The notes beneath the pieces are model-generated. The model ran no database searches and was not told where the DNA came from. It saw only the letters and a program-made list of their open reading frames with translations. The position numbers were made by a program, and so were the translations under genes. This document shows, piece by piece, positions 40,431 to 61,057 of a stretch of 64,000 bases of DNA (its first letter is position 1; each line of letters opens with the position of its first letter). This DNA is from Streptosporangiaceae bacterium (lineage in GTDB: Bacteria > Actinomycetota > Actinomycetes > Streptosporangiales > Streptosporangiaceae). The stretch spans positions 1,578,332 to 1,642,331 of the forward strand of contig CBDIDG010000006.1 of the NCBI GenBank assembly GCA_965277615.1. The letters are read 5' to 3'.

Positions 40431-40650
40431 TCACAGTTTGTAAGCGATCTTGTGAATGCAGGCGAGCGTCTCGGTGGCTTGCTTCAGGTCCTCGTTGCTC
40501 GCGTGGACATAGGTTTTCATGGTGAACGCGGCGTCGTAGTGCCCCCCGCCCACTTGCTGACGATGGAGATCGGCACTCCGGCCTTCTCCATCAGGGACAG
40601 GGTGGTGTGCCGCGAGTCGTGCAGCCTGATCTTGCGGAGACCTTCCTTAG
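40431..40650 (-). pseudogene. tyrosine integrase C-terminal remnant (frameshifted)
   Basis: My translation: KEGLRKIRLHDSRHTTLSLMEKAGVPISIVSKWAG, then a G6 run shifts the frame. In the corrected frame it continues HYDAAFTMKTYVHASNEDL...KL*. Confidence 0.75.
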
Positions 40651-40653
40651 CAT

Positions 40654-40950: not shown

Positions 40951-41014
40951 GCTCAGATCGGCTTGCACAACTTGCCCTGGCCTGTGCGGGCGCGGCTTCC
41001 GGGGCCGCGCTCCC

Positions 41015-42897: not shown

Positions 42898-42918
42898 TAA
42901 GCCGATTGTCCTCCCTGA

Positions 42919-43758
42919 TCAGGCGTCGGCGCGGCGCAGCCGCCACGCGGCGAGACCGATCATCACGACCGCATAGGCGCACAGGACGCCGAAACCGCTC
43001 CATGGCGCCAGTGGATGAACCAGGCCCCGCCCTCCCCCGAACAGCACTTCCCCGGCGTTGGAGGGCAGGTACTGCGCGAAGTGCGACGACCACGAGGACG
43101 GCAGCAGGTCGGTGAGCGGCGGGATCACGAAGAACACGGCGACGAACGTGGAGATCCCGGCGGCGGTGTTACGGAGCACCCCGCCGAGCGCCATCCCGAT
43201 CATGCCCGCGACCGTCGCGTACAGGGCCGCGCCGATGACCGAACGGAGGGCACCGGGAGCGCTGATCGCGACGTTCAGGTGGTGGCTGCTCAGCAGGGCC
43301 TGCCCGAGGAAGAACGACACGAAGCTGGTGACCAGCGTCAGCGAGAACACCACCCCGGCGAAGACCCCCAGCTTCGCCCACAGCACCGGGAGCCGCCGCG
43401 GCACCACGGTCAGTGACGAGCGGATCATCCCCGTGCTGTACTCGCCGCTGATCAGCAGCACCCCCAGCACGCCGATCGCCAGCTGAGCGAACATCATGCC
43501 GTCGAGGCTGGTGGAGATCGGGCTGAAGCTCGCCCGGTCCGCCGGACCGAACGTGTGATACTGGCTGGCGCTCACCGCCGAGAAGAGCGCGCCGATGCCG
43601 ATCGACAGCACCACCGCCGTCAGCAGCGTCCATACCGTCGAGCGCAGCGACCGGAACTTGGTCCATTCCGACCGCAGGACCCGCGGCTGGGTAACCCGCA
43701 GCCCGTGCTGGCGCGCCGCCGGGGTGGCCGTGGCCGTGGATGTCATGGTCGTGGTCAT
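42919..43758 (-). CDS. ABC-2 family transporter permease
   Basis: 6 TM-like segments. 4-nt overlap with the ATPase gene. Confidence 0.75.
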   Translation of the reverse strand: MTTTMTSTATATPAARQHGLRVTQPRVLRSEWTKFRSLRSTVWTLLTAVVLSIGIGALFSAVSASQYHTFGPADRASFSPISTSLDGMMFAQLAIGVLGVLLISGEYSTGMIRSSLTVVPRRLPVLWAKLGVFAGVVFSLTLVTSFVSFFLGQALLSSHHLNVAISAPGALRSVIGAALYATVAGMIGMALGGVLRNTAAGISTFVAVFFVIPPLTDLLPSSWSSHFAQYLPSNAGEVLFGGGRGLVHPLAPWSGFGVLCAYAVVMIGLAAWRLRRADA

Positions 43759-44687
43759 GCCGCCACCTCCACCGGGGCGCTCGGGCCGGCGGAGCGGTAC
43801 TCCACGGAATCCTGGGTGAGCTCCATGAACGCCTGCTCCAGCGAAGCCTGCTGGCTGGCCAGCTCATAGACCGGCAGGTGTGCCTGCCAGGCCACGGTGC
43901 CGATCTGCTCGGCGTTCAGGCCCTGAACGTGCAGGACGTCGGCCTGGTCGCTGGTGATGGTGACGTCCGGCCCCAGCAGCAGGTCACGGAGCCGGGTGGC
44001 CTCGGGCGTGCGGACGGTGACCGAATGACCGGACGCGCGGGTCACGAACTCCTCAACGGAGGTATCGGCGATCAGCCGGCCCCGCCCCACGACGATCAGC
44101 CGGGTCGCGGTCTGCGCCATCTCACTCATCAGGTGCGAGGACACGAAGACGGTGCGCCCGTCGGCGGCCAGCCCCTTCAGCAGGTTCCGGATCCACAGCA
44201 CGCCCTCCGGATCCAGGCCGTTCACCGGCTCGTCCAGCACCACCACGCTCGGATCGCCCAGCAGGGCCGAGGCGACGCCCAGGCGCTGGCCCATGCCGAG
44301 GGAGAATCCGCCGACCCGCTTCCCGGCGACCTCGCGCAGCCCGACCATGTCGATGACCTCATCCACCCGCCGCCGGCTGATCCCGTTGGTCTGGGCCAGC
44401 GCGAGCAGGTGGTTCCGGGCCGACCGGCCGGTGTGCATGGCCTTCGCCTCCAGCAGCAGACCCAGTTCCGCCATCGGCGCGCCGGCCGACCGGTAGTCGC
44501 TCCCGTTGACCCGGACGCTGCCGTGCGTCGGCTCGTCCAGGCCCGCGATCAAGCGCATCGTCGTTGACTTGCCCGCCCCGTTCGGGCCGAGGAATCCGGT
44601 CACCACCCCTGGCTGCACGACAAAGTCGAGGCCGTCGACCGCGAGCTTGTCCCCGTACCGCTTGCTGAGGTTGTTCACCTCGATCAT
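43755..44687 (-). CDS. ABC transporter ATP-binding protein
   Basis: GPNGAGKSTT, FSLGMGQRL, VVVLDEPVNGLD. GAAGGAG lies 5 nt upstream of the ATG at 44687. Confidence 0.9.
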   Translation of the reverse strand: MIEVNNLSKRYGDKLAVDGLDFVVQPGVVTGFLGPNGAGKSTTMRLIAGLDEPTHGSVRVNGSDYRSAGAPMAELGLLLEAKAMHTGRSARNHLLALAQTNGISRRRVDEVIDMVGLREVAGKRVGGFSLGMGQRLGVASALLGDPSVVVLDEPVNGLDPEGVLWIRNLLKGLAADGRTVFVSSHLMSEMAQTATRLIVVGRGRLIADTSVEEFVTRASGHSVTVRTPEATRLRDLLLGPDVTITSDQADVLHVQGLNAEQIGTVAWQAHLPVYELASQQASLEQAFMELTQDSVEYRSAGPSAPVEVAA

Positions 44688-45004
44688 CTGTGCTCCTTCA
44701 CCCGTCACAACGCCTCATTGGGCCGGCCCTGACCGAGATCACGATCGGCCCGGCTCTGACCCTGCTCACGCTAGGGCGGCCACCCGTGCCACCGCGTCGG
44801 CCCGGCAGATACAAAATCGGCCGCCGGGTACTACCTGAGGCCTAGGTCAGCGGCTGTCCGTGCGCCAGCGGTTGTAGGCGGCGCGGCCGACCCGCGGAGG
44901 GGCGCAGGCGGCGCGGCGAGCGCGGAGCCTGTCGACACCCGGCTTCCCTCATTTACGGTGGGAGCAGGGTTAAGCCTGGTTGACCACTACCTGGCGAGGC
45001 AGCA

Positions 45005-45451
45005 ATGGACTCAGAAGACGCCTTCCGCCGTTTCGGGCACGACATTGAAAGCGACCCAATTGGGGTGCTGCTGGCCAAGTGACGGCGCGACGCTTTCATC
45101 GAGAAGCTTAAGCGGCTACCCGATGTCGTTGAGGTCATCCCGTCCGGCAGCCTCGCTCGCGGGACCCAGATTGGGCCTGTTCACGACGTTGACCTGATAG
45201 TGGTGTTCGATAGGTCCGCCCACCCGGGTTACGGCAGCGGAACCGAATCCGCCCGCGCGGCGATGATGCATCTGGAAGAAGAAATTCGGCAGCAGATGCA
45301 CCCACTGCTAGGCACCGACGCGGCTTTGCCGAATGAGACCGAGATCTGCAATCACGTGGTGAAGTGCCCGGGCGTCTCGATGGGGCCCTTCGAGGGCTTC
45401 GTCCCGTCGGCGCCGCCCGTGGACGTGATGCCGGCCGTCCGGCACAACTGA
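45005..45451 (+). pseudogene. SMODS/CD-NTase-like nucleotidyltransferase, in-frame TGA and C-terminally truncated
   Basis: My translation: MDSEDAFRRFGHDIESDPIGVLLAK*RRDAFIEKLKRLPDVVEVIPSGSLARGTQIGPVHDVDLIVVF...VDVMPAVRHN*. It has GSxxRGT..DxD and a third Asp. The stop is at 45080..45082. Confidence 0.6.
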
Positions 45452-45966
45452 TGAAACTGGGCGTGAGGTCGATCAGTTTGCGCTGACACGCAGAGCGCTG
45501 TCCACATTGGCTCCCCCTCAAGTGCAGACCTCTCAGGGACCTCGGCTAGAAGGTGAGTCATGTGGTTTGCTTGCAATCCAACACGATGGGCCAACCGTTC
45601 GTAATCGATCAGCCCATGCGCCACGGCGACGCCATAGAGGATGTCTTCCATCCGGTTGGTCCTATCAAGGTGAAGGTCTCGCGCATGAGGAAGGCGTTAC
45701 CGTCGCGAGCAGGCCGAAGCGGGCAACCGAAGGACACCGCCGGTACCGAGTGACTAAGCGAGTGACGACCGGCCCGCACGGCGGCGGACTCCCCCGTACG
45801 TCCCTAGACATCGAGTGCAGCCCGTCGCCAGATTTTCGCACTTAGTATCACAGCCGTCTCACAGACTGAAAAGACGGCACCGGACTTGGGCGTCGTCACT
45901 GGACGCCCGCTGGACTCTGACTTGCGGAAACAGACCCGGTTGCACTGGCCGGACGCCTTGTCCGCG

Positions 45967-46024
45967 ACTGGGGGTCAAGGGGTCGCGGGTTCAAATCCCG
46001 CCGTCCCGACTTAGTTTTCGCAGC
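45967..46024. repeat. att copy 2 (tRNA-Pro 3' segment)
   Basis: gactgggggtcaaggggtcgcgggttcaaatcccgccgtcccgacttagttttcgcag. Confidence 0.85.
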
Positions 46025-46043: not shown

Positions 46044-46775
46044 TTAGACCACTCGGAGCTGGGGACCATCTGGGGACCGGCGCACCGAGATATGGGCGCT
46101 CAGGGCGTCCCCGGCATCAGTGATCGACTGGTCATCCGGGTGCAGGTAGCGCTGCGTCGTGGACAGTGACCCGTGCCCGGCGATCTTCCGCAGCACGTGG
46201 ACCTGGACGCCCGCATCAGCCAGCCAGGTCAGTCCGGTGTGCCGCAGATCGTGACGGCGAAGGTGCTCGTACCCGAGGCGGGTCACCACCTCGTCCCAGT
46301 GGGTGGCATCACGCAAGACCGCCGTGGAGATCCGGCCGCCACGCGGACCGGTGAACAACCGGCCGTCCGGTTCGTGCACCACGTCCAGGCGGGAGGCAAC
46401 TAGCTCGCGGGCCTCTTCGATGATCGGCACCTTTCGGGCTCGCTTGCCCTTGGTGGCCTTGTCGATCAGTCCGCCGGGGCCGGGTGTGGTCTGCCGCCGG
46501 ACGGTCCAGATCCACCGGTCACGGTCAATGTCGGCCTTACGGACGCCGGACACCTCACCGATGCGCGCCGCCGTGCAGGCCGCGAAGGTGACCACCTCAC
46601 CCCAGCCCGCATAGTGGTCAGCCGACCGGTCGACCAGCGCGGCGGCCAGCCGCATCAAGGCGGCGCCGTCATGCGGCGCCGCAGGCCCTGGCGTCGCGCC
46701 GGGCTTGGCCTTGGCGGCCCGCCCGGCGCACGCCGGGCCACACCCCGGGGCGCTGCGACGATCAGTCACGCTCAC
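46044..46775 (-). CDS. tyrosine recombinase, catalytic domain only (5'-truncated)
   Basis: ARIGEVSGVRKADID...LRRHDLRHTGLTWLADAGVQVHVLRKIAGHGSLSTTQRYLH. Only ~115 bp lie upstream before the divergent GNAT gene, so the N-terminal core-binding domain is absent. Confidence 0.75.
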   Translation of the reverse strand: MSVTDRRSAPGCGPACAGRAAKAKPGATPGPAAPHDGAALMRLAAALVDRSADHYAGWGEVVTFAACTAARIGEVSGVRKADIDRDRWIWTVRRQTTPGPGGLIDKATKGKRARKVPIIEEARELVASRLDVVHEPDGRLFTGPRGGRISTAVLRDATHWDEVVTRLGYEHLRRHDLRHTGLTWLADAGVQVHVLRKIAGHGSLSTTQRYLHPDDQSITDAGDALSAHISVRRSPDGPQLRVV

Positions 46776-47560: not shown

Positions 47561-49235
47561 CATCCCTAGCCTCGATCTTTCGCGCCGCTGATGTGCTGGC
47601 CTGAGGTGTCGGCTGGTGGGTGATTTTCAGGCTGGGTCGTGCCTGGCTGCCCGGTTGTCGCGCCGGGTAGGCGGGGTTCCACGGCCCCTGGTGTTTTCCT
47701 TCTTTGCCGTAGTGGCTGTTCCGGCTGTTCAGCCGGAGGGGAGGGCCTGCAGGCGGGTGACGGCGGCGGTGATGTCCGCAGCCCAGGCCCATCGTTCGGC
47801 GAGGCGGAGCCGCAGGCGGCGGCCTCCGCGCACGAGCCGGCCAGCGGCGGAGAACAGGCGCAGGCGGAGCCGTTTGGGTTCCCAGCGGCGGGCGGTCCCG
47901 GTGAGGGCGAGCAGCTGCGTCCAGGCCAGCAGGTCGCAGGCCAGGGCGACGATCTCGCACCAGACCTGGTTCTGCGCGAAGCCCTTGAGCGGGAGGTTCC
48001 GCAGCCCGGTGTCCTTCGCGCAGCGGATCCGGTCCTCGCACCGTGCCCGCCGCCGGTGGCGGAGTTCCAGGTCAGCGAGCTGGCCTTTGCGTGCATCGGT
48101 GGCGAAGGCGGTGAACCGGTGCCCGTCGATATCGGTGAAGCGCAGCTGCGCACCGGGGTGCGGGCGCTCTTTGCGGACGATGACCCGCATCCCGGCGGGC
48201 CAGCCGGACAGGTCCAGCAGCCCGGTGATGTCGGCGATCCAGGCGCCGTCGCGGATCTGCCCGTCACCGTCGTAAGCCGGCGTCCACGCGGACGCGGGCA
48301 TTTTCAGGATCGCGGCCTGCATGTCCTCGGTGATCGTCATGCCGATGGAGTAGTGCAGCCGCCGCGACGGCGCGGTCAGCCAGGTCAGGAACTCGTGGGT
48401 GCCGCCGCCGGAGTCGGTGCGGACCAGGACCTTGCGCCGCTGGTGGCGGGGCAGTTGCGCCAGAGAGAGCCTGGCCGCCTCGATGTGGTCGGCGGCGGTG
48501 TTCGAGCCGGCGTTCCCGGCCCGCAGCGCGATGGCCAGCGGTTCCCCGTTCCCGCCGGCGCCGTGGTCGGCCCAGGCGGTCATCGGGTGGAACCCGAACG
48601 TCTTCTTCCAGGTCGCAGCCGCCTGCTCTTTCTCCGAGTGCGCGATCACGACGGTGGCGTCCAGATCTATCGTGACCAGGCCGTCCGCGCCGGGAGCGTT
48701 GTCCCCGGCCAGTGCCCAGGCCCGCTCCCGCGCGGCGGAACGGGCAGCGCGGATTGCCTTAAGCGACCGGGACAGGTCCCCGGCCAGCACGCTGACCAGC
48801 CGGGATACCACGGGGCCGGACGCGACCGGCCCGGCCAGTTCCGGCTGCTCCCGTAGCACCGCGATGTCGGCCAGGCAGTCCCCGCCGAGGGCGACGGCGG
48901 CGGCCAGGTCCGCGATGATCTTCCCGGGGTCGTGGACCGCCCGCGGTGCCCGCCACCGGGCCAGCCCGCCGGACAGGCCCCGGCTCAGGCCGGTGACCCG
49001 CATCGTTTCCCACAGCAGGACCGCCCCGGCCTGGGACACCAGGCCGGGGCCGTCAGCAGAGACGGTAACCCGGGCAGTGCGTGCGCTATTCTTCACCTGG
49101 AAAGTGCCTTTGACTCGGGACGGTCAGGACCTTAGACAAGCCCAATTGTCCCAGCTGAAGGCACTTTTTTCATACCTTTTTTCACATAAAGAACGGCAGG
49201 CCGATTAACCCCGGCGAAAGCCCGAGGCTAGGGTG
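47561..49235 (-). mobile_element. IS1380-family insertion sequence with 4-bp target duplication
   Basis: Terminal inverted repeats CATCCCTAGCCTCGATCTTTCGC (left) and CACCCTAGCCTCGGGCTTTCGC (right, complement). CCAG is present at 47557..47560 and 49236..49239. Confidence 0.8.
47729..49096 (-). CDS. IS1380-family transposase
   Basis: 455 aa. VSADGPGLVSQAGAVLLWETMRVTGL...GGDCLADIAVLREQPELAGPVASGPVVSRL is typical of the family, from memory. Confidence 0.8.
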   Translation of the reverse strand: MKNSARTARVTVSADGPGLVSQAGAVLLWETMRVTGLSRGLSGGLARWRAPRAVHDPGKIIADLAAAVALGGDCLADIAVLREQPELAGPVASGPVVSRLVSVLAGDLSRSLKAIRAARSAARERAWALAGDNAPGADGLVTIDLDATVVIAHSEKEQAAATWKKTFGFHPMTAWADHGAGGNGEPLAIALRAGNAGSNTAADHIEAARLSLAQLPRHQRRKVLVRTDSGGGTHEFLTWLTAPSRRLHYSIGMTITEDMQAAILKMPASAWTPAYDGDGQIRDGAWIADITGLLDLSGWPAGMRVIVRKERPHPGAQLRFTDIDGHRFTAFATDARKGQLADLELRHRRRARCEDRIRCAKDTGLRNLPLKGFAQNQVWCEIVALACDLLAWTQLLALTGTARRWEPKRLRLRLFSAAGRLVRGGRRLRLRLAERWAWAADITAAVTRLQALPSG

Positions 49236-49506: not shown

Positions 49507-49543
49507 GCTCCACAACCTCGGCACCTATCGGGTGAAGGCCCCA
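49507..49543. repeat. 37-bp exact repeat, copy A
   Basis: gctccacaacctcggcacctatcgggtgaaggcccca is identical at 57395..57431. The flanks are unrelated. Confidence 0.9.
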
Positions 49544-50060: not shown

Positions 50061-50105
50061 ACTGGGGGTCAAGGGGTCGCGGCTTCTAATCCCGCCGTCC
50101 CGACT
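50061..50105. repeat. att copy 3 (tRNA-Pro 3' segment, 2 mismatches)
   Basis: actgggggtcaaggggtcgcggcttctaatcccgccgtcccgact. Confidence 0.8.
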
Positions 50106-50168
50106 GGTCAGAAGGTTGAAAGGTCTCTCTAAACGGTCTTCGGGAGCCCAGGGTTTCTCGGATCAGGC

Positions 50169-50590
50169 TTACGTCGGCTTGCCGGCGTTCGCCTTCAGGA
50201 TGCGGTTCATCGCCGTGGCGCCCTTGGTGAGGCGGGCCGGATCTCGTGCCGGTCCACCGTCTCGGTGACCGACGTGCCGCTGTGCCCATCAGATCGCTGA
50301 TGTCCTCCAGGCGGACATCGTGCGCGCTGAGGACGGACACGAACGAATGCCGTAGCTCGCGAGGCGTCTAGCTCCCGCCGAGCCTCGCGGCCTTGGTGAT
50401 CTTCTTGAACTCCTTCCGCACGTGTCAGCGGCCCAGCGGTGTGCCGTCCTCACGGCAGAACACGAGATCGTGCTCTTGCCAGGTCTCCTGCGTTGCTGCG
50501 CGCTGCTCTCAATCCGGAGCGGAGGAGCGGAGGCGGGAAGGCGCCGTCGTTGCGTGGTTGCGGCTGAGCTCGAACACGGTCCTGTCACCC
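50169..50590 (-). pseudogene. tyrosine integrase remnant with several frameshifts/stops
   Basis: My translation gives QEHDLVFCREDGTPLG, TPRELRHSFVSVLSAHDVRLEDISDLMG and TSVTETV..HEIRP in different frames. Its 5' side runs into the GH65 3' end. Confidence 0.7.
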
Positions 50591-53043
50591 ACGCTCAGGT
50601 TGCGAACGTCGTCGCGGACCGCCGCCCTCACCGAGCGGCTCCCGCCCTCGGCGTGCAGGGCCAGCGTCAGCTGGTCGCGGGTCAGCGTCACCTGGATCGG
50701 GGTCTGCCGGAACTGCATCGAGAACGACAGGCCGCCGAGTTGGCCCGGGAGCCGGGGGTCGAAGCACAGGACGCCATCGCTGATATAGGTGCCCGCGTAG
50801 CTGCGCTGCACAAGGTCGAGCGTCCCCGCCATGACACCCATATGGATGCCTTCCTTCGTCGTACCGCCCTGAACGTCCTCGGCATCGCTGCGCAGCGCGA
50901 CCAGGAACCGTTCCCATGAGCTCTCCGGGTCGATGGCGGCGAGGACCCCGGCATGGGTGACGAAACTCAGCGTGGAGCCGTGCGAGGTGCGCCGGTCGTA
51001 GTATGCGACGTTCCGCGGCACCGTGTCGAGGCCGTAGCCGTACCCGAGGCGCCCGAAAATCTCGCGTAGCTCCTCGTCCCGGAACAGGAAGAACAGCATC
51101 ACCGTGTCGGCCTGTTTGGTGACTTTGTAACGGTTGGGATCCTTGCCCTCCGCGTGCAGGATCCGGTCGAGCCGCTGGATGTTGCCGTACTTGGCCCGGT
51201 ACGCATCCCAGTCCAGCTCTTCGAGGTCCCCATAGCCCTCAAACTGGCTGATGATCCCGTCGTCGTGGAACGGGACAAACATCCGGCGGCTCATGTCCCG
51301 CCACACCGTCAGCTCGTCATCGCCGATGCCGAGCCGCTCGCGCAACTCTTCCGCTCGGCTCGAGGGCAGCAACGCCAGCAGCTTGCCAGCGACATCGCAC
51401 AGCCACGCCACAAAAACGTTGGTGTACGCGTTGTTCCGCAGGCCGCCGTCGGCCGCATCCGGGTACTTGTCGTGGAACTCGTCTGGGCCCATTACGCCGT
51501 GGATCTCGTAACGCTCGCGCTCGGGATTGAAATGCGCGATGGACGCCCAGAAACGGGCGATCTCGAGCATCATTTCCGCGCCGTAGTCACGCAGGAATGC
51601 CTGGTCATTCGTGGTCTGGTAGTACTGCCAGATGTTCCAGAAGATCGCCGCGTTGACGTGTCGCTGGTTGTGGCTGAGGTCCGGCTCCCAGAGGCCAGAA
51701 ACGGGGTTGAGGTGGACCCGCTGTGTCTCCTCAGTTCCCTCGCTGCCGCTCTGCCACGGGAACATCGCGCCCCGGAATCCTGCCCCCCGCGCCGCCTCCC
51801 GGGCCTCGCCCATCCGGCGGTAGCGATACATCAGCAGCCCTCGCGTGACCTCCGGCAGGCGGACGTTGAAGAACGGGAACGCGTAGAGTTCATCCCAGAA
51901 CACGTGCCCGCGATAGGCCTCGCCGTTCAGGCCGCGGGCGGGCAGGCCGGCGTCCAGGTCGGCGGTATTCCGGGAGCAGACCTGCAGGACATGCGCGATA
52001 TGCAGCCGCAGCAGCAGCTGGACGCCCTCCTCCCCGGACACTCGCACGTCACACACCCGCCACAGCTCCTCCCACGCCGCGGCGTGCCGCTCGAACGAGG
52101 CGGCGAAATCAGTGTGCCGCGCCACGGACGTGGCCGCCTTAACCAGCGTGTCGCTGACCGCCGGGTCCCGGGATGTGTAGAACGTCACCATCTTCTCGAT
52201 CTGCGTCGCCTCGCCCTGGCTTACGTCGAAGGCCAGGACCTGCTGGATGTAGTCCTCCATCTGGTAGAGCCGCCGCTCGACCTGGATTGGCCGATCGCCG
52301 CGGAACACGCGGGCGCGGGCTGCATGGCTGACGTACAGGTTCGACTGCCGGGTCTCGGTCTTCAGCGCGATAACCTCGGGCCCGAGCGTCCGCGGGCCCA
52401 CAGGGTTTAGGTGGCGGCCCTCCAGCTGCCGGTAGCGGGCGACCCCGGCGTTGCTCACCCGGCCGTCGATCGCCGTGACCACCTCGACGCGCCCCGACCA
52501 GTTCCCCGGGATGAGCGTCCACTCGATCCCTCCGTGATGGGCGCCGGCCATACTAACGAAGCGGCGGCTGTGCAGCGTCGTCTCACGGCCCTCATGATCA
52601 CGGAACGAGAGGTGGCGGATCACAGTCGCGAACCGCATGTCAAGTTCATGGCGGTAACTGAGCAGCTCCACGTCGGCGAGCCGGATCACGTCCCCGCCCT
52701 CGATACGCAACTGGAGGACCAGCCAGTTCGGCAGGTTGACGAGGTCCTCGTTGAGTACGGGCAGCCCGCCTAGGATCGTCGTCTCGCGGTTGTAGCCGCC
52801 ATGCACGTAGGTGCCGGGATAGTGCACGCCGTCGGCGTCCTCCCACTCGGCCGCGCCGCGTGCGCACAGGTAACCGTTGCCCGTCGAGGTCAGCGCCTCG
52901 CGAACACCCTCAGCCCCGGGATCAAAGCCGTCATATGCGAACAAGAAACCGTCCACGACACCTCCTGCCGGCCTAGCCGCCTTCGCGGTCACCGACGGCG
53001 GGCCGGCCGCGTCGAGGGTGTACCCATTCCACTGGTTCTGCAT
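50509..53043 (-). CDS. glycoside hydrolase family 65 (disaccharide phosphorylase-like)
   Basis: 844 aa. REALTSTGNGYLCARGAAEWE, YRGHVFWDELYAFPFF, FPWQSGSEGTEETQ. Confidence 0.85.
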   Translation of the reverse strand: MQNQWNGYTLDAAGPPSVTAKAARPAGGVVDGFLFAYDGFDPGAEGVREALTSTGNGYLCARGAAEWEDADGVHYPGTYVHGGYNRETTILGGLPVLNEDLVNLPNWLVLQLRIEGGDVIRLADVELLSYRHELDMRFATVIRHLSFRDHEGRETTLHSRRFVSMAGAHHGGIEWTLIPGNWSGRVEVVTAIDGRVSNAGVARYRQLEGRHLNPVGPRTLGPEVIALKTETRQSNLYVSHAARARVFRGDRPIQVERRLYQMEDYIQQVLAFDVSQGEATQIEKMVTFYTSRDPAVSDTLVKAATSVARHTDFAASFERHAAAWEELWRVCDVRVSGEEGVQLLLRLHIAHVLQVCSRNTADLDAGLPARGLNGEAYRGHVFWDELYAFPFFNVRLPEVTRGLLMYRYRRMGEAREAARGAGFRGAMFPWQSGSEGTEETQRVHLNPVSGLWEPDLSHNQRHVNAAIFWNIWQYYQTTNDQAFLRDYGAEMMLEIARFWASIAHFNPERERYEIHGVMGPDEFHDKYPDAADGGLRNNAYTNVFVAWLCDVAGKLLALLPSSRAEELRERLGIGDDELTVWRDMSRRMFVPFHDDGIISQFEGYGDLEELDWDAYRAKYGNIQRLDRILHAEGKDPNRYKVTKQADTVMLFFLFRDEELREIFGRLGYGYGLDTVPRNVAYYDRRTSHGSTLSFVTHAGVLAAIDPESSWERFLVALRSDAEDVQGGTTKEGIHMGVMAGTLDLVQRSYAGTYISDGVLCFDPRLPGQLGGLSFSMQFRQTPIQVTLTRDQLTLALHAEGGSRSVRAAVRDDVRNLSVGDRTVFELSRNHATTAPSRLRSSAPD

Positions 53044-53136
53044 GTGCCCGACGGAGGCGCCAATGGATACGGTCCCCAGTGCGGCAGCGAAGCCGTCCTC
53101 GACGATCAGCCAACCGGAATCCGTACCGCCGGGAGT

Positions 53137-54150
53137 TCAGGAAAGTTCCTCCTGCGGTCGAGGGCCGTACGCCGCATGGATCTGCCGCTCGGTTTCCTCT
53201 CGTGGCAGGTAGACGTTCAGTTCCGTGCCGGTGCAGCGCTGAGCGCCCATCGCGTTCCCGTACTGACAGGCCACGATGTAATCCCGGTACGCGAGGTAGC
53301 CGTAGGCCAGCCCCGCGGCGAACGAGTCGCCGGCACCGGTCGTGTCCACGACATGCTCCACCTCGATGCGATCCACGAACTCCTCGGCGATCCCGCCGGA
53401 GTCGCTCCTGTAGAAGACCACGCAGCCGCGCTCATCAAGGGTCACGCATACCGCCCCGACACCGCGGTCCAGGCAGTGACGTGCCAGGTCGCGCAGTTCT
53501 TCATCGCCCAGCCGGGGCGGATCAGCCGTCACCTCCACCGATTGGGCGAGCCACGCCGAGCTCGCTTCGTCAAGGTTCATCTTCAGGATGTCGGTGTACG
53601 GAAGCCATACGTCCCGGTCGGCCCACACCCGCGGATGGCGCTTGCCGCTGCGGGTCAGCGTGATCGCCGGGCCGTGGGCGTCCAGCACCACGGTTGCCCG
53701 GCTGTGCTCCTTGATGTGCCGCAGCGTCGGCTGCCCCACCTCGTAGTCCGTGATCGGGACACAGACGAACATGTCGGCGTCGAGCACCTGGTCGACGTCG
53801 GCCGGCAGGATCGGGTTCATGAAGCTCGCCTGCCGCTCGACGCGACGATTCTGGTCAACATAGCGCAGCTCGACGACGTCCCCCTGGTCGGCCGACGACG
53901 TTATACCGGAGGTGTCAATATTCGGGAAGGCTCCCAGGATCTGCTTGACCGGACCCTCGTCTCGCCGGCGGACGTGTGATATCGGGACGATCGTGTCGCC
54001 AACATCCAGCAGAGCCGAGAGGGCAACCGCCGTATATATGACGCAGCCGTACTTCTCGAACCGCTCACCGGTATGGGTCACCACTTGGTCGCGAGGGATC
54101 GGCCCCAGCACCGCAACCTTACGACTCCCCCGGCTTTTCATGTCATTCAT
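53137..54150 (-). CDS. PfkB-family carbohydrate kinase
   Basis: C-terminal DTTGAGDSFAAGLAYGYL. 93 nt upstream of the GH65 gene. Confidence 0.8.
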   Translation of the reverse strand: MNDMKSRGSRKVAVLGPIPRDQVVTHTGERFEKYGCVIYTAVALSALLDVGDTIVPISHVRRRDEGPVKQILGAFPNIDTSGITSSADQGDVVELRYVDQNRRVERQASFMNPILPADVDQVLDADMFVCVPITDYEVGQPTLRHIKEHSRATVVLDAHGPAITLTRSGKRHPRVWADRDVWLPYTDILKMNLDEASSAWLAQSVEVTADPPRLGDEELRDLARHCLDRGVGAVCVTLDERGCVVFYRSDSGGIAEEFVDRIEVEHVVDTTGAGDSFAAGLAYGYLAYRDYIVACQYGNAMGAQRCTGTELNVYLPREETERQIHAAYGPRPQEELS

Positions 54151-54394: not shown

Positions 54395-54790
54395 TTAGGC
54401 GGGTTCGGCCAGGAAAAGGTGCCCAGCGCCGAGGCTCCACGCAGCCCGCCGTGGTACGGCCTGGTTCCGATGCGCTGCTGTACCCCACCGGATCGCTGAT
54501 GTCTTCAAGCCGGACACGCGGCTGAGAATGGACACGAACGAGTGCCGCAGCTCACGAGGCGTCCAGGTCCTGCCGAGTCTGCGGCCTTGGTGATCTTGTG
54601 GAACTCCTTCCATACGTGCCACGATCGAGTGGCGTCCCGTCCTCGCGGCAGAACACGAGATCATGCTCCTCCCACAACTCCCCCGCCGCGAGCCGTTCCG
54701 CAGCCTGGCGAGTGTGATGCGCTCGGAGCGCCTCGATCACCTGAGTGGGCAACTCCAGGACGGGCCGACCTCTTGAACTTGGTGTCACCC
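54395..54790 (-). pseudogene. tyrosine integrase remnant (homolog of the 50169..50590 remnant)
   Basis: ALRAHHTRQAAERLAAGELWEEHDLVFCREDGTPLDR and WTPRELRHSFVSILS are in different frames. Ends 1 nt after the tRNA-Val-like element. Confidence 0.7.
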
Positions 54791-55210
54791 CTGACCCGCA
54801 CGGACCGGTACACGGCCACGGTGCCCTACGGCGAGTGGCTGCGCCGCGAGCGGCGCAGGCGTGACGCCCGCGATCAGCTCGGCTGGGCGTACGAAATTTT
54901 CGACTCGGTCGGCGCCGCGGCGTTTGCCGAACGGTCGCGCATCGAGCTGCGGGCAACCGGCGGGCACGCCCGGCCGCGCACCGTCCAGACGCCGGATACC
55001 CTGACCGCGCAAGAAGCGCTGATCGCCCGCCTGGCCGGCGACGGCGCCTCCAACCCGCAGATCGCCGCGCAGCTGTTCATCAGCCCCGCCACCGTCGCCT
55101 ACCACCTGCGGAAAGTTTTCACCAAGCTCGGCATCAGCTCACGCAACCAGCTTGCTCCCGCGCTTCCCGCCCGACAAGTCGCAGCACCGCTGGTCCCGCC
55201 GCAGGACTGA
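54790..55210 (+). pseudogene. C-terminal fragment of a large LuxR-family (LAL-type) regulator
   Basis: YGEWLRRERRRRDARDQL...FAERSRIELRATG...LTAQEALIARLAGDGASNPQIAAQLFISPATVAYHLRKVFTKLGISSR. There is no N-terminal ATPase part. Confidence 0.7.
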
Positions 55211-55770: not shown

Positions 55771-56388
55771 ATGATCAGCAAAGTGTCAGGCCGCACCAAG
55801 CTGGCCGCGGGTGCAGGCGTCGCGCTGGGCGAGCAGTCCGATGAGGTGCTGCTCGCCGGCCTGGGCGCGGGCGATTCCGACCTCGCGGTCACATTCGTGC
55901 GACGGTTCCAGCGGATCGTTTTCGGCACTGCGCAGGCCGTTACCGGCGACCCGGCCACCGCCGAGGACGTCGCACAGCGTGCCTTCGAGCAGGCGTGGCG
56001 GCACGCGTCGGTGTATGACTCACGACGCGGCTCCGTCCGGGCGTGGCTCGCCACGATCACGCGCAACCTGGCGATCGACACCGTCCGCGCGCGAACGGCG
56101 GTGCCGATGGACCCGGACGACCTGCCGATCGTCCTTGCCGCTATGACCGAGAACCCGGAGCAGGCAACGGTCGCCCACGACAGCGCGGAACGGCTGCGCA
56201 AGGCCCTCGCCGGACTGCCCGCCCGGCAGGCACGGGCGGTGGCGATGTCCGGGATCTACGGCCTGACCGGGCGGCAAGTCGCCGATACCGAGAGGATTCC
56301 CCTCGGTACGGCAAAGACGCGGATTCGGGACGGTATGCAGAAACTGCGGGCCGCCTACCTTCCCGAGATAGCAGCGGGCCATGAATGA
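55771..56388 (+). CDS. ECF sigma factor
   Basis: VTFVRRFQRIVFGTAQAVTGDPATAEDVAQRAFEQAW (region 2) and LPARQARAVAMSGIYGLTGRQVADTERIPLGTAKTRI (region 4). Confidence 0.85.
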   Translation: MISKVSGRTKLAAGAGVALGEQSDEVLLAGLGAGDSDLAVTFVRRFQRIVFGTAQAVTGDPATAEDVAQRAFEQAWRHASVYDSRRGSVRAWLATITRNLAIDTVRARTAVPMDPDDLPIVLAAMTENPEQATVAHDSAERLRKALAGLPARQARAVAMSGIYGLTGRQVADTERIPLGTAKTRIRDGMQKLRAAYLPEIAAGHE

Positions 56389-56458
56389 GCACAACGACGT
56401 GACCTGCGCAGACCCGCATGACGTGGCCGCCGAGCTGGCGCTCGGCGTTGCTCACTGA
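56381..56458 (+). pseudogene. possible anti-sigma factor N-terminal stub (25 codons)
   Basis: ATGAATGA overlap with the sigma stop. MNEHNDVTCADPHDVAAELALGVAH* resembles the start of RskA/zf-HC2 anti-sigma factors. Confidence 0.3.
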
Positions 56459-56559
56459 TAGCAGGTCGCGGGCGCGACGTGGCCGTCATCTCCAGGGACA
56501 TCGAGTCGTTGTTGATCTTGGTTGGCATGGGGGCCCCTTTCCCGCCCGCAGAAACCACG

Positions 56560-56594
56560 GGGAGCCAGGAACGTGAGCCAACGCAGATCGGCTC
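56560..56594. repeat. 35-bp direct repeat, left copy
   Basis: gggagccaggaacgtgagccaacgcagatcggctc, 32/35 identical to 60321..60355 in the same orientation. Confidence 0.9.
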
Positions 56595-56611
56595 ATCGGC
56601 CGTATCGCTGG

Positions 56612-57175
56612 CTAGAACTGTGCCTTGAGTTCGTCGGTCTCCTGCGCCAGGTCCTGAAGCTGGGCGTATGCCGGGTTCTCGCGGATGCGGCCAACCGCCC
56701 ACCGCAGGACTTCCGCGCGACTGGTCGCGACGCCCGCCATGATCAGCGCGTCAACAGTCGCCAGGTCAGTAGGCCCCAGCAGGGTCGCCACCCGAGTAAA
56801 GTCCGGCATGGCCTCCAGCACGTTGAGCCGGTTCCCCAGGAAGCTTCTCACGTGCCCCCAGTCCGGCCTCGAAGGCATGGCCTGCCGTTCGGGCGTATCG
56901 GGAAAGAACTCGATCCACGCGATGGCCGGCAGCAGCCCGTCATGCAGCCTGTCGAGCCCCTCGCTGTTGGCCTTGAACCAGCCGTCCAGCGTCTCCTTGC
57001 TGTCCCAGTTCTCCTCCAGTCTGCCTGCCCGGTCGATGAAAACCCGGACCGCAGTCTCCCCAGGCTCGACAGCCGGATCGTCACCGTACCCAAGCACATC
57101 CACCCGGGCGAACGTGCCCTCGGGGAAAGCTGACAGCAATTTGTTCTTCACCGCGTTAGCTATCGCCTCGTCCAC
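56612..57175 (-). CDS. hypothetical protein with C-terminal ribbon-helix-helix-like domain
   Basis: GTG at 57175 preceded by AGGAGGA (ORF extends to 57247). The C-terminus is LGPTDLATVDALIMAGVATSRAEVLRWAVGRI. The N-terminal ~110 aa are unassigned. Confidence 0.6.
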   Translation of the reverse strand: MDEAIANAVKNKLLSAFPEGTFARVDVLGYGDDPAVEPGETAVRVFIDRAGRLEENWDSKETLDGWFKANSEGLDRLHDGLLPAIAWIEFFPDTPERQAMPSRPDWGHVRSFLGNRLNVLEAMPDFTRVATLLGPTDLATVDALIMAGVATSRAEVLRWAVGRIRENPAYAQLQDLAQETDELKAQF

Positions 57176-57394
57176 GGGATCCTCCTGAAGGTGACCGTCC
57201 GCTACAGGTTGCACGGGCGTCAGCAACCTAGCAGCAGGAGCAGACAAGGCGATTCCGCGTGACGCTTATGGCTGGAATGGCTTGCCTCAGGCGCCCCCCA
57301 GGCTCACGGGCGGATCGAAAGTGGGCGCACCTGCCGCAGAACGACGGTGCGAGGAATAGGGCTGCACCCGAACTGAAATCGGGCTACGCCGTCC

Positions 57395-57431
57395 GCTCCA
57401 CAACCTCGGCACCTATCGGGTGAAGGCCCCA
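57395..57431. repeat. 37-bp exact repeat, copy B
   Basis: Identical to 49507..49543. Confidence 0.9.
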
Positions 57432-57510
57432 CACTCACAGGCACCTCGTGCCGTCAGCCCGGGAGTGCGGCCGCCGACGTAATCCGGCCGAGCCGTGGCC
57501 AACGGCGAGC

Positions 57511-59085
57511 TCAGCGCACCGCCCGCCGCCGCAGGGCACCGACGGCGTTCCAGCGCAGCGCCCCGGCCAGGTCGCGGGCGTGCTCAGTCATCGAGTAGTC
57601 GGGTTGGCTGTCTACGTCGCGCAGGGCCCGGTCCAGGTCCAGCCCGTGCTGTTCAAGGACGATCGAGAAGTCTCGCCGCATCGGGCCGAGCTGATCATAG
57701 CCAAACGAGCGGTAGATACGCGGAAACTGGGACCGGTAAAGCCGGACCCGTTCATGCAGGCCCGATGAGTGCGAGAGCGGGTTCTTCGGCCGCTTCCGGA
57801 CATACTCCGGCAGGATGTCGGCGAAAGCGTGCCGCAGGATCCACTTGTCCTGCCCGTCGTGCTGCTTCAGCTCAATCGGCAGCCGCATGGCCAGCCGGAC
57901 CAGCGCGAGATCGAGGAAAGGCACCCGGGTTTCCACCCCCTGGCCCATGCTGGTGCGATCCACCCGCTGCAGCTCGGTCCGCCCCAGGTTGTGCAGCTTG
58001 TGCTGGAACAGCCGCTGCCGCAGAACCGGATCGGGCTGCCGGTACATCTCATAGCCGCCGAACAGCTCGTCCGAACCATCGCCGCACAGCACGACCTTGA
58101 CGCCGCGGCGGTGCACGTGGTCGAACAGCCGCCGGGAGATGACCGCGTTGATGATGTCGCCGTACTCGGTCAGCTCGGACATCCGGATGGCCTCCCGGAC
58201 GTCGGTATACCGGATGCTGCCCGGGGCCAGTTCAATGACCTCGTGCTCGACGCCGAGGTCGCGGGTCACCCGGCGGGCGTACGCCACGTCGTCGCTGTCG
58301 GGTGCGCCGATCGTGAACGCCACACAATCCGGGTGCTGGTCCCGCACGTGCAGCAGGGTCAGCGTGCTGTCCAGGCCACCGGAGAAGATGACGCCCACGG
58401 TCAGGTCAGTGTCCAGCCGGACCCGGATGCTGTCCTCCACCGCGGCCCGGACCAGCCGGGTCGCCTCGACCGGATCGGTGATGGGCTCATCGCCGTCGCC
58501 GATGGTCAGCAGGTCAACGTACGCGCTGACGGCGGGATCGGTGTCCGGGGCGCCCCAGCCGTGATGGCCGGGCGGGACTTCGCTGATCGGGCCGCCCGCC
58601 GGGACCAGCGCCTTGAGCTCGGATGCGACGTACAGATGACCGTGCTGCCGGGACCAGTAGAGCGGTTTGACCCCTAGCGGATCACGGGCCAGATAAACCC
58701 GGTCCCCGGCCCGGTCGGCCACCGCGAACGCGAACTCGCCGCGCAACTGGTGCACCGCCTGGTCGCCCCATTCGAGGAACGCTTCCAGAACCACCTCGGT
58801 GTCGCTATCGCTGCGCAGCTCGTGGCCGCGGGCGGCCAGGTCGGCCCGCACCTCCCGGAAGTTGTAGATCTCGCCGTTGTAGCAAACCGCCCACCGGCCG
58901 TCCGTTGAGTGCCACGGCTGGACCGCCCGTTCCCGGTCGACGATCTTCAGCCGCTGGGTGCCGAGCAGGTGCCGGTCATCGCTGAGCGTCTCGCGGACGT
59001 CACCGCGCGGTGCGATCGCGTTCAGCATCTGGTCGAACAAACCCGCATCCGGAACCGGCCCCACGATCAGCGCGATACCGCACAT
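57511..59085 (-). CDS. asparagine synthase (glutamine-hydrolysing)-family amidotransferase
   Basis: MCGIALIV (Ntn Cys), RGPD-like IAPRGD, YNGEIYNF, PP-loop VIFSGGLDSTL. GAGAGGA RBS. The ATG is 22 nt after the upstream stop. Confidence 0.85.
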   Translation of the reverse strand: MCGIALIVGPVPDAGLFDQMLNAIAPRGDVRETLSDDRHLLGTQRLKIVDRERAVQPWHSTDGRWAVCYNGEIYNFREVRADLAARGHELRSDSDTEVVLEAFLEWGDQAVHQLRGEFAFAVADRAGDRVYLARDPLGVKPLYWSRQHGHLYVASELKALVPAGGPISEVPPGHHGWGAPDTDPAVSAYVDLLTIGDGDEPITDPVEATRLVRAAVEDSIRVRLDTDLTVGVIFSGGLDSTLTLLHVRDQHPDCVAFTIGAPDSDDVAYARRVTRDLGVEHEVIELAPGSIRYTDVREAIRMSELTEYGDIINAVISRRLFDHVHRRGVKVVLCGDGSDELFGGYEMYRQPDPVLRQRLFQHKLHNLGRTELQRVDRTSMGQGVETRVPFLDLALVRLAMRLPIELKQHDGQDKWILRHAFADILPEYVRKRPKNPLSHSSGLHERVRLYRSQFPRIYRSFGYDQLGPMRRDFSIVLEQHGLDLDRALRDVDSQPDYSMTEHARDLAGALRWNAVGALRRRAVR

Positions 59086-59107
59086 ACCAATTCCTCTCCC
59101 GGCCGCG

Positions 59108-60040
59108 CTAGCGGCCGGCCAGCTGGGCATCGTAGGCGGCCTGCAGGTCGCCGCGGGCGCGGGGGCTGACGCACAGGTGCCACACCTGGCCCTCGTCAAT
59201 TACGTTGATCTGGTCCGCCTCCTGCCGTTCCAGCAGCAGCCGGGCCAGCGCCCCGCCCCGGTCAAAGCGGCGGAACCACTGCATCTCCACGTCGCAGGCG
59301 TACCCGGCACAGTGTGAGCTGGGCAGGACGGCAGCGTAGCCAAGAGACCGCAGCCGGTGCTGATGCTCGACGCTCCGGACCAGGCTGGTCACCCACAGCC
59401 GGGGCGTGCCGGCGGGCAGCGCCGTGGCCAGGTCCCGGGCCAGCTCGTTGAGCAGCGCGACGACGACCGGGCGCGACCGGGTGAACCGCAGGCCCGCTGT
59501 CCGCGGCCTCAGGTCCGGCAAGGCCTGCCGCCGGGCCCAGTCCCGGGCCCGGCTGGCCAGCCCGACCGGCTGCTCACAGTACTGAAACCCGAGCACGGCG
59601 GCGGCCTTCAGCGGGGGCAGATCGACCAGCTCGGCCGACTGGGTGACGTCGGCATCGGCGCCGAAAGGCATGGTTTCGCCCCACCACATGGTGTCGATCT
59701 GGGAGAGCAGGATGATGCGGGCGAAGGACCATACGTCGCCGGTACCACGGTCGCTGGGCCGGAAGCGGCCCAGCTCAGCGGCCAGGTACTCCGCAGCCGC
59801 GCCTGCCCCGCCTCTCAGCCGGGACAGCACCGGCGCAAACTCGCGGTGGACGAGACGCTCGCCGACGAACGCGCCTACCGCGGAAGGATCAGCCGAGCCA
59901 AGCGTCCTGCTCGCCTCCGTCACCAGGTCATCGACGGCGGCCCGGTACCCAGCCAGCTGGGCCTCCGGCGCGATCAGTGCGCCCGGGCCTGGGAAGTCCG
60001 GCTCCGCACGCTGACTCGCAGGCCTGGAGTGCTTGCCCAT
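59108..60040 (-). CDS. hypothetical protein with VanY/M15 (LAS-fold)-like zinc-site motif in the C-terminal third
   Basis: 310 aa. LWVTSLVRSVEHQHRLRSLGYAAVLPSSHCAGYACDVEM (SxHxxGxAxD pattern) and a later VWHLCV. The first ~200 aa were not recognised. Confidence 0.55.
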   Translation of the reverse strand: MGKHSRPASQRAEPDFPGPGALIAPEAQLAGYRAAVDDLVTEASRTLGSADPSAVGAFVGERLVHREFAPVLSRLRGGAGAAAEYLAAELGRFRPSDRGTGDVWSFARIILLSQIDTMWWGETMPFGADADVTQSAELVDLPPLKAAAVLGFQYCEQPVGLASRARDWARRQALPDLRPRTAGLRFTRSRPVVVALLNELARDLATALPAGTPRLWVTSLVRSVEHQHRLRSLGYAAVLPSSHCAGYACDVEMQWFRRFDRGGALARLLLERQEADQINVIDEGQVWHLCVSPRARGDLQAAYDAQLAGR

Positions 60041-60320
60041 GTCCTCCCCCTGGCACCGGACCTGTCCCTCGTCGCGGCGGCGCGATCATGGCCCACGGGA
60101 GCCAGCGCGATGCGCCGTCGCCGCACGCCGGGCACCATTGTGTACCACTGCGACCCAGTGCATCCGCGAATGCGCCAAGAACCCAGTGTGTGTCCTGCGC
60201 CGCGAGGTGAAGGCGATGACACACTCCGGCACGCACGCCCAGCCATATCAACCCGTTCTGCACACCCCACGGGAGATCCGGTCAGTGAGGCGTTCGCCCC
60301 CGGAGGACTACTCTCGTCGC

Positions 60321-60355
60321 GGGAGCCAGGAACGGGAGCCAACGCAGGTCGACTC
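60321..60355. repeat. 35-bp direct repeat, right copy
   Basis: gggagccaggaacgggagccaacgcaggtcgactc. It contains an internal GGGAGCCA duplication. Confidence 0.9.
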
Positions 60356-60404
60356 CCCCAGACTGGTCCCGACGACGTTAGGGCGTTTGTTGCAGGTGAG
60401 AGGG

Positions 60405-61057
60405 TCTCCGGCCACGCCGAAGCCCGCGACCATGTACGCGGCCAAAATCATGTGCGGCATCTCGTAGCTGGCCGAGCGGCTGAAGAACACCTGCCACACG
60501 TCGATCGACGTGATCTGGCCGTTCCGCTGAGTGAAGCCACCCGGGGTGTTCATCCACGAGTTCACCGCGATGACCGCCATCGCCCCGAAGATCCCGCTGA
60601 GCGCGATCGGCATCCCCGACCACCAGTGGGCCCAGCCCGGCAGCCGCCCCCAGCCCCACAGGTAGATCCCCGCGAAGATCGCCTCCAGGAAAAAGAACAG
60701 CCCCTCCACGGCGAACGGCACCCCCAGCACCGCCCCGTACTGGCGCATCAGCCCCGGCCACAGCAGGCCCATCTCGAACGACAGCACCGTCCCGGTGACC
60801 GCGCCCACCGCGACCAGCACGCCCATCGCCTGCGACCAGCGCCGCGCCAGCAGCATCGCGGTCTGGTTCCCCCGCCTCAGCCCGATGAACTCGGCCAGCA
60901 GCACAATCGACGGAAAAGCAATGCCGAAACACGCCAAGATGATGTGAAAGCCCAGCGTGGCCGCCATCTGCGCCCGGTCCGGAACGACATCCCCGGGCAC
61001 CTGCGCCGCGACCAGAAACATTGATCCGCTAGCGCTCATGGATACTCCCTCGGGCAT
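60405..61057 (-). pseudogene. cydA: cytochrome bd-type quinol oxidase subunit I, 3'-truncated
   Basis: ATLGFHIILACFGIAFPS...WPGLMRQYGAVLGVPFAVEGLFFFLEAIFAGIYLWGW...AVNSWMNTPGGF...AAYMVAGFGVAG, then unrelated sequence. About half of a normal CydA. Confidence 0.7.

Follow-up and report, generated by a model that had tools for sequence, protein, structure and literature searches.

Three genes between 35-bp direct repeats in a Streptosporangiaceae genome: probable island cargo and a recurrent DUF5715–AsnB gene pair

Introduction

When a short direct repeat brackets a few intact genes and the genes beyond it are cut, does it mark a mobile cassette, or can the same picture arise in other ways? The question is raised by a 64,000-nt stretch of DNA from a Streptosporangiaceae bacterium (GCA_965277615.1, contig CBDIDG010000006.1, positions 1,578,332 to 1,642,331; hereafter the window, meaning the whole stretch analysed), in which two copies of a 35-bp sequence (the 35-mer) enclose three genes: open reading frame 1 (ORF1), with a motif of M15 peptidases, a gene for an AsnB-type amidotransferase (AsnB), and ORF3. 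An earlier note had proposed that these genes moved as a unit, with the 35-mer as an attachment (att)-like site, and that they might serve cell-wall remodelling or immunity. We report that the 35-mer is very probably arm DNA of an element that integrates at tRNA-Pro, not the att site of a cassette, and that the block is, with nearly the same probability, no mobile unit of three genes; the genes would rather be immobile cargo of an island. The block is made of two unrelated units, ORF3 and the ORF1–AsnB operon, the second of which is old and has become widespread by vertical descent.

The repeat and the genes between its copies

The 35-mer, GGGAGCCAGGAACG[T/G]GAGCCAACGCAG[A/G]TCG[G/A]CTC, occurs exactly twice in the window, at 56560-56594 and 60321-60355, on the same strand and with 32 of 35 positions identical, while 100 shuffles gave no match (none is expected by chance). 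When the surroundings of the two copies were aligned, similarity ended at about 35–38 nt. Exactly three intact minus-strand ORFs lie between the copies, as the earlier note had described. The block and its borders are laid out as follows (gene X is an 81-aa gene of the element, introduced below; L numbers denote loci from other genomes or contigs).

55771-56388, plus strand: extracytoplasmic function (ECF) sigma gene (Pfam Sigma70_r2/r4)
56381-56458, plus strand: 25-codon anti-sigma stub, MNEHNDVTCADPHDVAAELALGVAH and stop, overlapping the stop of the ECF sigma gene
56467-56559, minus strand: 5' stub of gene X (about 20 codons, MPTKINNDSMSLE...) with its leader
56560-56594, plus strand: left 35-mer, with the element's left flank only
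56612-57175, minus strand: ORF3, 187 aa, GTG start after AGGAGGA, with its own upstream region to about 57255
57256-57502: spacer between ORF3 and AsnB, no identified source, holding one copy (57395-57431) of a 37-nt repeat
57511-59085, minus strand: short AsnB-type glutamine amidotransferase, 524 aa (TIGR01536, 345 bits, cut-off 267)
59108-60040, minus strand: ORF1, 310 aa (Pfam DUF5715, 29.8 bits, cut-off 26.8)
60041-60222, minus strand: conserved upstream (promoter/leader) region of the ORF1–AsnB operon, with 97.7% identity to L015 and partial conservation in L001
60223-60320: 98-nt spacer between the operon upstream region and the right 35-mer, no identified source, its junction shared with L023
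60321-60355, plus strand: right 35-mer, consensus type, with the element's right flank only
60356-60413, plus strand: 58-nt terminal region of the element, cut just past an inverted GGCTCCCC-like motif
60414-61057, minus strand: truncated cydA, roughly its N-terminal half, with the reading frame continuing into element DNA

All three genes are under purifying selection (dN/dS 0.11–0.49 against relatives). The earlier note was right that both neighbours are cut: the anti-sigma gene is a 25-codon stub, and cydA ends after about residue 217 (Pfam Cyt_bd_oxida_I positions 3–194 of 418). Neither truncated gene abuts a repeat, however, since the gene X stub intervenes on the left and 58 nt of element end on the right; the two truncations are separate deletions.

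The 35-mer as probable arm DNA of an element that integrates at tRNA-Pro

Outside the window we found the 35-mer core at 77 occurrences in 74 contigs, usually once per contig: a scan of one genome per species gave five actinobacterial metagenome-assembled genomes (MAGs) with one copy each, and a metagenome scan gave 69 contigs, mostly from peat and soil. Conservation of the core itself is partly forced by the search pattern and to that extent weighs against what follows. Both flanks of the 35-mer were conserved and contiguous at 41 of the 77 occurrences. To its left lies the start of gene X (MSTKINDDS...), then a DUF2637 gene; to its right come about 90 nt and then, in 31 of the 41 and within 170 nt, the 3' part of tRNA-Pro(GGG). 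The order in intact relatives is therefore the DUF2637 gene and gene X, both pointing leftward, the 35-mer, about 90 nt and the tRNA 3' part. It is because these intact cases place the 35-mer between gene X and the 3' half of the tRNA that we assign it to the element arm. The motif GGGAGCC occurs in the arm as three direct copies, of which the 35-mer contains two, and as one inverted copy about 75 nt downstream. The gene X stub of the window is 81–87% identical to relatives in which a full 81-aa gene X is followed by the DUF2637 gene.

An att-like repeat of a cassette had been expected only at cassette borders, but among the 74 other contigs the cassette genes are present in L023 alone. A single-copy version, corresponding to the empty site that the earlier note foresaw, does exist in relatives; it sits in the tRNA-Pro element arm, not between intact anti-sigma and cydA genes. 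On one such relative, L008, positions 487-612 match window 56476-56597 and positions 575-666 match window 60321-60413, and these two stretches overlap by 38 nt, so that the flanks of the two window copies are complementary on a single-copy locus. The attR that follows the terminal region in relatives is missing from the window at 60413/60414. It is retained in L023, a locus from another sample and 94% identical, in which AsnB, ORF1, 98 nt, the 35-mer and the terminus lead up to an intact att with an integrase-like flank beyond it. Hence the right junction is real and predates the loss of part of cydA. In L015 (97% identical), AsnB lies about 100 nt from a PfkB/GH65 block that is also found in the window, and a different join occurs upstream of ORF1; this arrangement is a further deletion variant. 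Breakpoints in several other lineages cluster within about 60 nt of the 35-mer core.

Two other identities for the 35-mer were considered and rejected. It is not a generic REP-like (repetitive extragenic palindromic) repeat, usually occurring once per locus and in a recurring context, in agreement with the earlier note. A structured RNA was likewise set aside, with no Rfam family matching the 35-mer region and no compensatory pairs from RNAalifold on 33 sequences.

Some relatives show local peculiarities. Three loci (L070, L081, L084) carry two inverted 35-mers about 2.9 kb apart (e.g. L081:9327-9361 and 12214-12251), one copy having its right flank intact and its left partly conserved, the other having both flanks replaced. 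In L010, a relative MAG, the 35-mer has a group II intron (L010:581-896; RF02001, 121 bits; RF01998, 67.5 bits) at a distance of about 1.3 kb, and its left flank appears by eye to be replaced by transposase-like sequence. An alignment designated A5 (e.g. L008:665-690, L038, L069, L075) contains a 4-bp hairpin about 30 nt before the tRNA-identical att segment, with changes that are compensatory between lineages (GGCC/GGCC, AACC/GGTT, GACC/GGTC) and were not reported by RNAalifold; the hairpin may imitate a tRNA arm or be what is left of one.

Two unrelated units, probably cargo

DNA homology divides the block into two parts with different histories: that of the ORF3 locus is limited to 56607-57255, and that of the ORF1–AsnB operon covers 57503-60222. 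ORF3 was monocistronic and never near AsnB in the four relative neighbourhoods examined (L011–L014). ORF1 and AsnB, in turn, were adjacent and in the same order in nine of nine other distinct neighbourhoods examined, with an AsnB of 514–533 aa following ORF1 within 0–25 nt; the linkage of the M15-motif gene to AsnB that the earlier note asked about is thus upheld. Seven of these neighbourhoods are actinobacterial (L001, L004, L005, L015, L023, L088, L092), one is from the cyanobacterium Rivularia sp. IAM M-261 (L085) and one (L091) is from an unidentified organism. In eight of them (L001, L004, L005, L015, L085, L088, L091, L092) the pair occurs without ORF3 and without the 35-mer; only in the window lineage (the window and L023) is it linked to the 35-mer. 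Movement of the block as a unit is not supported by these distributions.

No recombinase gene lies between the two 35-mers, plasmid and phage searches found no homologue of the block, PADLOC models matched none of the three proteins, and a promoter and terminator scan of the block found nothing. A cell-wall or immunity role for the block is conjecture.

ORF3 belongs to a family of 923 homologues. Its sequence reached no family above threshold in Pfam and the other collections searched (with no Pfam RHH, ribbon-helix-helix, match), and neither sequence nor structure gave a significant match in the PDB. The AlphaFold2 (AF2) model, with a predicted local distance difference test (pLDDT) score of 69, has an alpha/beta N-terminal domain and helices at residues 135–186 of pLDDT 50–70. 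An RHH-like pattern can be read by eye in the tail, of which residues 131–179 weakly match the model for the C-terminus of AbmR (21 bits, cut-off 160), a transcription factor (PMC6282994). Judged by its sequence, ORF3 is plausibly a putative regulator, separately transcribed across a gap of 335 nt and unrelated to the pair.

A probable decayed array at tRNA-Pro(GGG)

The region to the left of the block supplies the setting. The following features were recognized there.

40282-40356, plus strand: tRNA-Pro(GGG), the integration target (ARAGORN; Rfam tRNA, 66 bits)
45963-46010, plus strand: second copy of the tRNA 3' part (att), ending relic element 1
46044-46775, minus strand: integrase gene adjoining the second att (Phage_integrase, E 8e-22)
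47564-49233: insertion sequence (IS) element of IS1380 type in relic element 2, bounded by 20-nt inverted repeats (CCCTAGCCTCGATCTTTCGC); its transposase (DDE_Tnp_1_4, 455 aa) is intact
50061-50104, plus strand: third copy of the tRNA 3' part (att), ending relic element 2
50105-50488, minus strand: integrase C-terminal remnant F, 76–84% identical to the post-att sequence of relatives
50509-53043, minus strand: GH65 phosphorylase (Pfam)
53137-54150, minus strand: PfkB kinase (Pfam)
54420-54469, minus strand: 50-nt fragment of a DUF2637 gene, fused to integrase fragment F'
54467-54956, minus strand: second integrase fragment, F'

Our best explanation, to which as a whole we give about an even chance, is that integrative elements arrayed in tandem at tRNA-Pro(GGG), and since decayed, make up the window between 40.3 and 60.4 kb. 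The region holds a tRNA with direct repeats of its 3' part, a tyrosine integrase beside an att, and a 35-mer whose place is fixed in the arm. The tRNA 3' repeats (40327-40356, 45981-46010, 50075-50104) differ by 0–2 mismatches per 30 nt, where none is expected by chance. The integrase fragments at 50.1–50.5 and 54.4–55.0 kb are frameshifted; in remnant F a box II-like PRELRHSFVS...GH can still be read from the sequence. F and F' form a 214-nt direct repeat, 81% identical (50269-50481 against 54467-54674), that brackets the GH65 and PfkB genes, and F' is followed by a LuxR fragment, then by the sigma/anti-sigma stub and the gene X stub. The join of the DUF2637 fragment to F' indicates, on the strength of the sequence, a probable deletion junction between two tandem elements; since F and F' are 81% identical and the DUF2637 fragment abuts F', at least two related elements appear to have been fused by deletion.

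The GH65/PfkB block (50509-54150) is 96.8% identical to L015. GH65-like genes, 65–68% identical in nucleotides to window 50804-52902, also occur at L036:1888-5112 and in L076, a few kb from gene X and the 35-mer, with an N-terminus that looks HAD-like by eye; from these loci it follows that GH65-type phosphorylase genes recur near the relic in different lineages.

Relic element 1 (40357-46010) apparently encodes a response regulator, a histidine kinase and an ABC-2 transporter pair, judging from translations read by eye, among which no integrase was apparent. Two segments of L015 (2371-2434 and 1795-1907), joined upstream of its ORF1, match window 40395-40459 and 45848-45960, that is, the left and right ends of relic element 1 in the window, so the order of relics differs between close lineages. 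A 37-nt perfect direct repeat, GCTCCACAACCTCGGCACCTATCGGGTGAAGGCCCCA, with unrelated flanks, occurs at 49507-49543, near the right end of relic element 2, and at 57395-57431, between ORF3 and AsnB. It was not found in the 92 other loci compared or in viral contigs. An IS end was rejected as its source, the inverted repeats of the IS1380-type element lying elsewhere, at 47564 and 49233.

Why there are two copies

Under either of the two readings below, two relics or a single insertion, the 35-mer belongs to the host element. With roughly equal chances of being right or wrong, we take the two window copies to be homologous pieces of arm DNA, one from each of two related relics that lie side by side. 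The relic on the left would have been cut just after its own 35-mer, and the right relic would retain its 35-mer and terminus, with the rest of its body replaced by ORF3 plus the ORF1–AsnB operon; the same kind of junction deletion would have produced the F/F' integrase pair and the cydA junction. We favour two relics because deletion-fused tandem relics prevail in the region, as F/F', L015 and the cydA junction show, and because the left flank and the left 35-mer variant (G at position 32) resemble L040/L028, the right flank and right 35-mer L071/L047/L006.

Several observations count against two relics. A test of these flank affinities, based on 58–93 nt, was not significant (n = 28, r = –0.24, p = 0.16). 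The flanks are exactly complementary, with an overlap of 35–38 nt, which a single insertion with target duplication would fit equally well. No att or integrase remnant was found between the copies, and the left junction (35-mer/ORF3) is found in the window only.

A single insertion is accordingly the strongest competitor, though we consider it rather unlikely. A 3.7-kb mosaic (ORF3 locus, spacer, ORF1–AsnB) would have entered the arm of one relic by illegitimate recombination, either end-joining at a staggered break or replicative template switching, duplicating 27–38 bp of target. Such an event would explain why the left copy has the left flank only and the right copy the right flank only, with their 38-nt overlap on single-copy relatives, and the insert is indeed a patchwork of loci that are unlinked elsewhere. 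The sequence CGGCTCAT at the end of the left copy is also present downstream of ORF3 in L011/L012, making microhomology possible, and the breakpoints near the core in several lineages point the same way. Neutral decay after the window and L023 split would be enough to explain the three differences in 35 nt (dS is about 0.18 between the window and L001, which is similarly distant as L023). A duplication of about 35 bp, however, is not routine for any known mechanism; L040 and L028, the relatives closest to the left flank, naturally have the same G at position 32 as the left copy, and the right copy and right flank match other relatives; and fusion of tandem relics by deletion is the prevailing local process. 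Two neighbouring relics therefore remain our preferred account of the repeats.

The ORF1–AsnB pair

The motifs that the earlier note read in the two proteins, and the spacing of their genes, are as described there. ORF1 carries SSHCAGYACD and a later His. Its homologues number at least 664 in a 90%-identity cluster search and form 177 clusters at 50% identity. DUF5715 was detected in 43 of 44 family members, and Peptidase_M15_3 (E 0.006), Peptidase_M15_4 (E 0.16) or VanY (E 0.19) in at most four of the 44. The zinc triad H243, D250 and H288 (H-x6-D...H) is invariant in 44 sequences, down to 21% identity, and the invariant residues of the family also include W119, R222, Q227, G246 and P293. In a profile search of the PDB with ORF1 the best match was ChiX, an M15C enzyme (E 0.0066). 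The AF2 model is confident (pLDDT 90.4); its N-terminal half is helical and its C-terminal half alpha/beta. Direct reading of the sequence showed neither a signal peptide nor a hydrophobic stretch. ORF1 is a predicted cytoplasmic LAS-type zinc protein.

The invariant triad and the identity of the top matches point towards the M15/LAS fold suggested by the earlier note, but two points weigh against it: the Foldseek top matches, although M15C enzymes, are weak (E 0.16–0.7, target TM-score, template modelling score, 0.32–0.43), and no conserved acid stands three residues before the last His, a position that is Q285 here and varies among Q, R, I, T, G, D and P. E283, five residues before that His, is at least 90% conserved in the family.

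AsnB starts 22 nt past the ORF1 stop and begins MCGI, with the Cys1 nucleophile (GATase_7, E 6.9e-41); its PP-loop (pyrophosphate-binding loop) reads SGGLDS (Asn_synthase, E 3.1e-56), and equivalents of K376, R387 and K449 are retained. It falls below the E. coli AsnB equivalog model PRK09431 (314 bits, cut-off 499). The pair-linked AsnBs share Cys1, the PP-loop and the motifs GD(G/C)SDELFGGY and ELQRVDR, down to 44% identity. The first of these motifs has Asp in place of Glu348 of E. coli AsnB in all pair-linked AsnBs, and the second has, likewise in all of them, Glu in place of Asp384. Glu348 of E. coli AsnB controls acyl-adenylate formation.

From this we infer that ORF1 and AsnB act together on one carboxylate-bearing substrate. 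That the substrate is a peptide or cell-wall compound, possibly a D-amino-acid peptide or peptidoglycan precursor, is a tentative suggestion. Cell-wall genes lie near the pair in some neighbourhoods, namely a divergent FemAB gene (L088), PG_binding (L085), CHAP (L001) and a beta-lactamase (L005); that this hint comes from only 3–4 of the other neighbourhoods tells against the suggestion. Gene fusions, as evidence for an ORF1–AsnB complex, were rejected: P0373, P0386 and P0381, database proteins that seem to fuse ORF1-like and GATase segments, are products of frameshifted gene calling. Long parts of them, rich in Arg, Pro and Ala, are translated out of frame, and they are unfit as Rosetta-stone evidence.

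AsnB might instead be a plain cellular asparagine synthetase, with ORF1 an unrelated or regulatory neighbour that has no catalytic role in a shared pathway. AsnB does pass TIGR01536, at 345 against 267 bits, and keeps Cys1, the PP-loop and the three equivalents of K376, R387 and K449. We nevertheless find this account doubtful, given the shortfall at PRK09431, the substitutions at Glu348 and Asp384 and the ELQRVDR motif that the linked AsnBs have in common, and adjacency with gaps of 0–25 nt in all nine other contexts, across two phyla.

Assembly artefact or cassette

The locus might also be an assembly chimera, a mosaic of reads from related populations joined at short shared sequences. All relatives are metagenome-derived, the region has many abrupt junctions and short repeats, including the perfect one of 37 nt, and the left junction is unseen elsewhere. 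Yet the right junction recurs in another sample (L023), L015 again contains the PfkB/F' and operon blocks, three mismatches would keep the two 35-mers from collapsing in a k-mer graph, and all three genes are intact and under purifying selection; we regard a chimera as very unlikely. A three-gene mobile cassette moved by site-specific recombination at its own att-like 35-mer, with a cell-wall remodelling or immunity function, is hardly credible: the direct repeats do enclose three intact genes and no more, the linkage of ORF1 to AsnB is real and breaks recur near the 35-mer, but the 35-mer lies in the tRNA-Pro element arm in 74 other contigs that, L023 excepted, lack these genes, ORF3 is unlinked to the pair in L011–L014, the pair has no 35-mer in its eight contexts other than L023, and the block shows no recombinase and no plasmid, phage or PADLOC match.

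Discussion

The nearest known counterparts of the array are the tandem arrays formed at tRNA genes by pSAM2/SLP1-type actinomycete integrative and conjugative elements (AICEs) and tRNA-linked islands. Shared with these are an intact tRNA with 3' repeats, a tyrosine integrase by the att, a DUF2637 gene, short repeated motifs in the arm near the att, decay by deletion and cargo at the element end. Unlike them, the window has no intact element left and no named representative of its element family was identified, and replication or transfer genes were not seen in the window and the relative loci examined. The mobile part of the locus is thus an ordinary, known kind of genome plasticity, and the result opens no long-standing question. 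It does provide a case in which short direct repeats around intact genes mimic a cassette while being leftovers of stacked decaying elements, and a dated example of core-like genes turned island cargo.

As a lead, the gene pair is of more use than the mobile part: an undescribed combination of two known enzyme superfamilies. In the literature searched we found no mention of DUF5715 or of the gene pair. Three known systems come near it. The first is the LtsA/AsnB amidotransferases of meso-diaminopimelate (mDAP) in C. glutamicum, B. subtilis and L. monocytogenes, enzymes that are annotated as asparagine synthase and used for another carboxylate (PMC7920481, PMC5485061, PMC8554201). The window AsnB, also annotated as asparagine synthase-type, resembles them in its Cys1 class II domain, its PP-loop and the cell-wall genes among some of its neighbours. 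The pair-linked AsnBs differ in being shorter, at 514–533 aa against about 620–650 aa, in their own signature (GDGSDE, ELQRVDR) and in always being paired with a DUF5715 protein in the neighbourhoods examined, a pairing that is not described for LtsA/AsnB.

The second is the M15C/LAS L-Ala-D-Glu peptidases (ChiX, 5opz; LysECD7, 8q2g; RB49 endolysin, 23ri) together with VanX/VanY. ORF1 has in common with these R-S-x-x-x-Q, S-x-H-x-x-G-x-A-x-D and a later W-H, the zinc triad being invariant, and they are its best, if weak, profile and fold matches. It departs from them in an extra helical N-terminal domain of about 190 aa, in lacking a signal peptide, in having Glu five residues (not an acid three residues) before the last His, and in not being phage-borne.

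The third is the N-acetylglutaminylglutamine amide (NAGGN) osmoprotectant trio, which consists of an AsnO-type amidotransferase (TIGR03104), Ngg and an M42 peptidase. Here too an AsnB-type amidotransferase is coupled to a protein of a metallopeptidase family, and the trio makes a small peptide amide; but the window AsnB scores 231 bits against the TIGR03104 cut-off of 570, the locus has no Ngg ligase, and its peptidase family is LAS, not M42.

With its invariant LAS zinc site and its obligatory pairing with a distinct AsnB subfamily, DUF5715 gains a testable assignment. It is possible, if on balance improbable, that the pair is an undescribed ancient two-enzyme system, common to Actinobacteria and at least one cyanobacterium, that amidates, and perhaps trims, a cytoplasmic D-amino-acid peptide or peptidoglycan precursor. 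If so, cell walls or peptides would be modified by a route other than those of LtsA/AsnB and MurT-GatD, and, were the substrate of the pair a cell-wall precursor, soil actinobacteria and cyanobacteria would have one more modification pathway.

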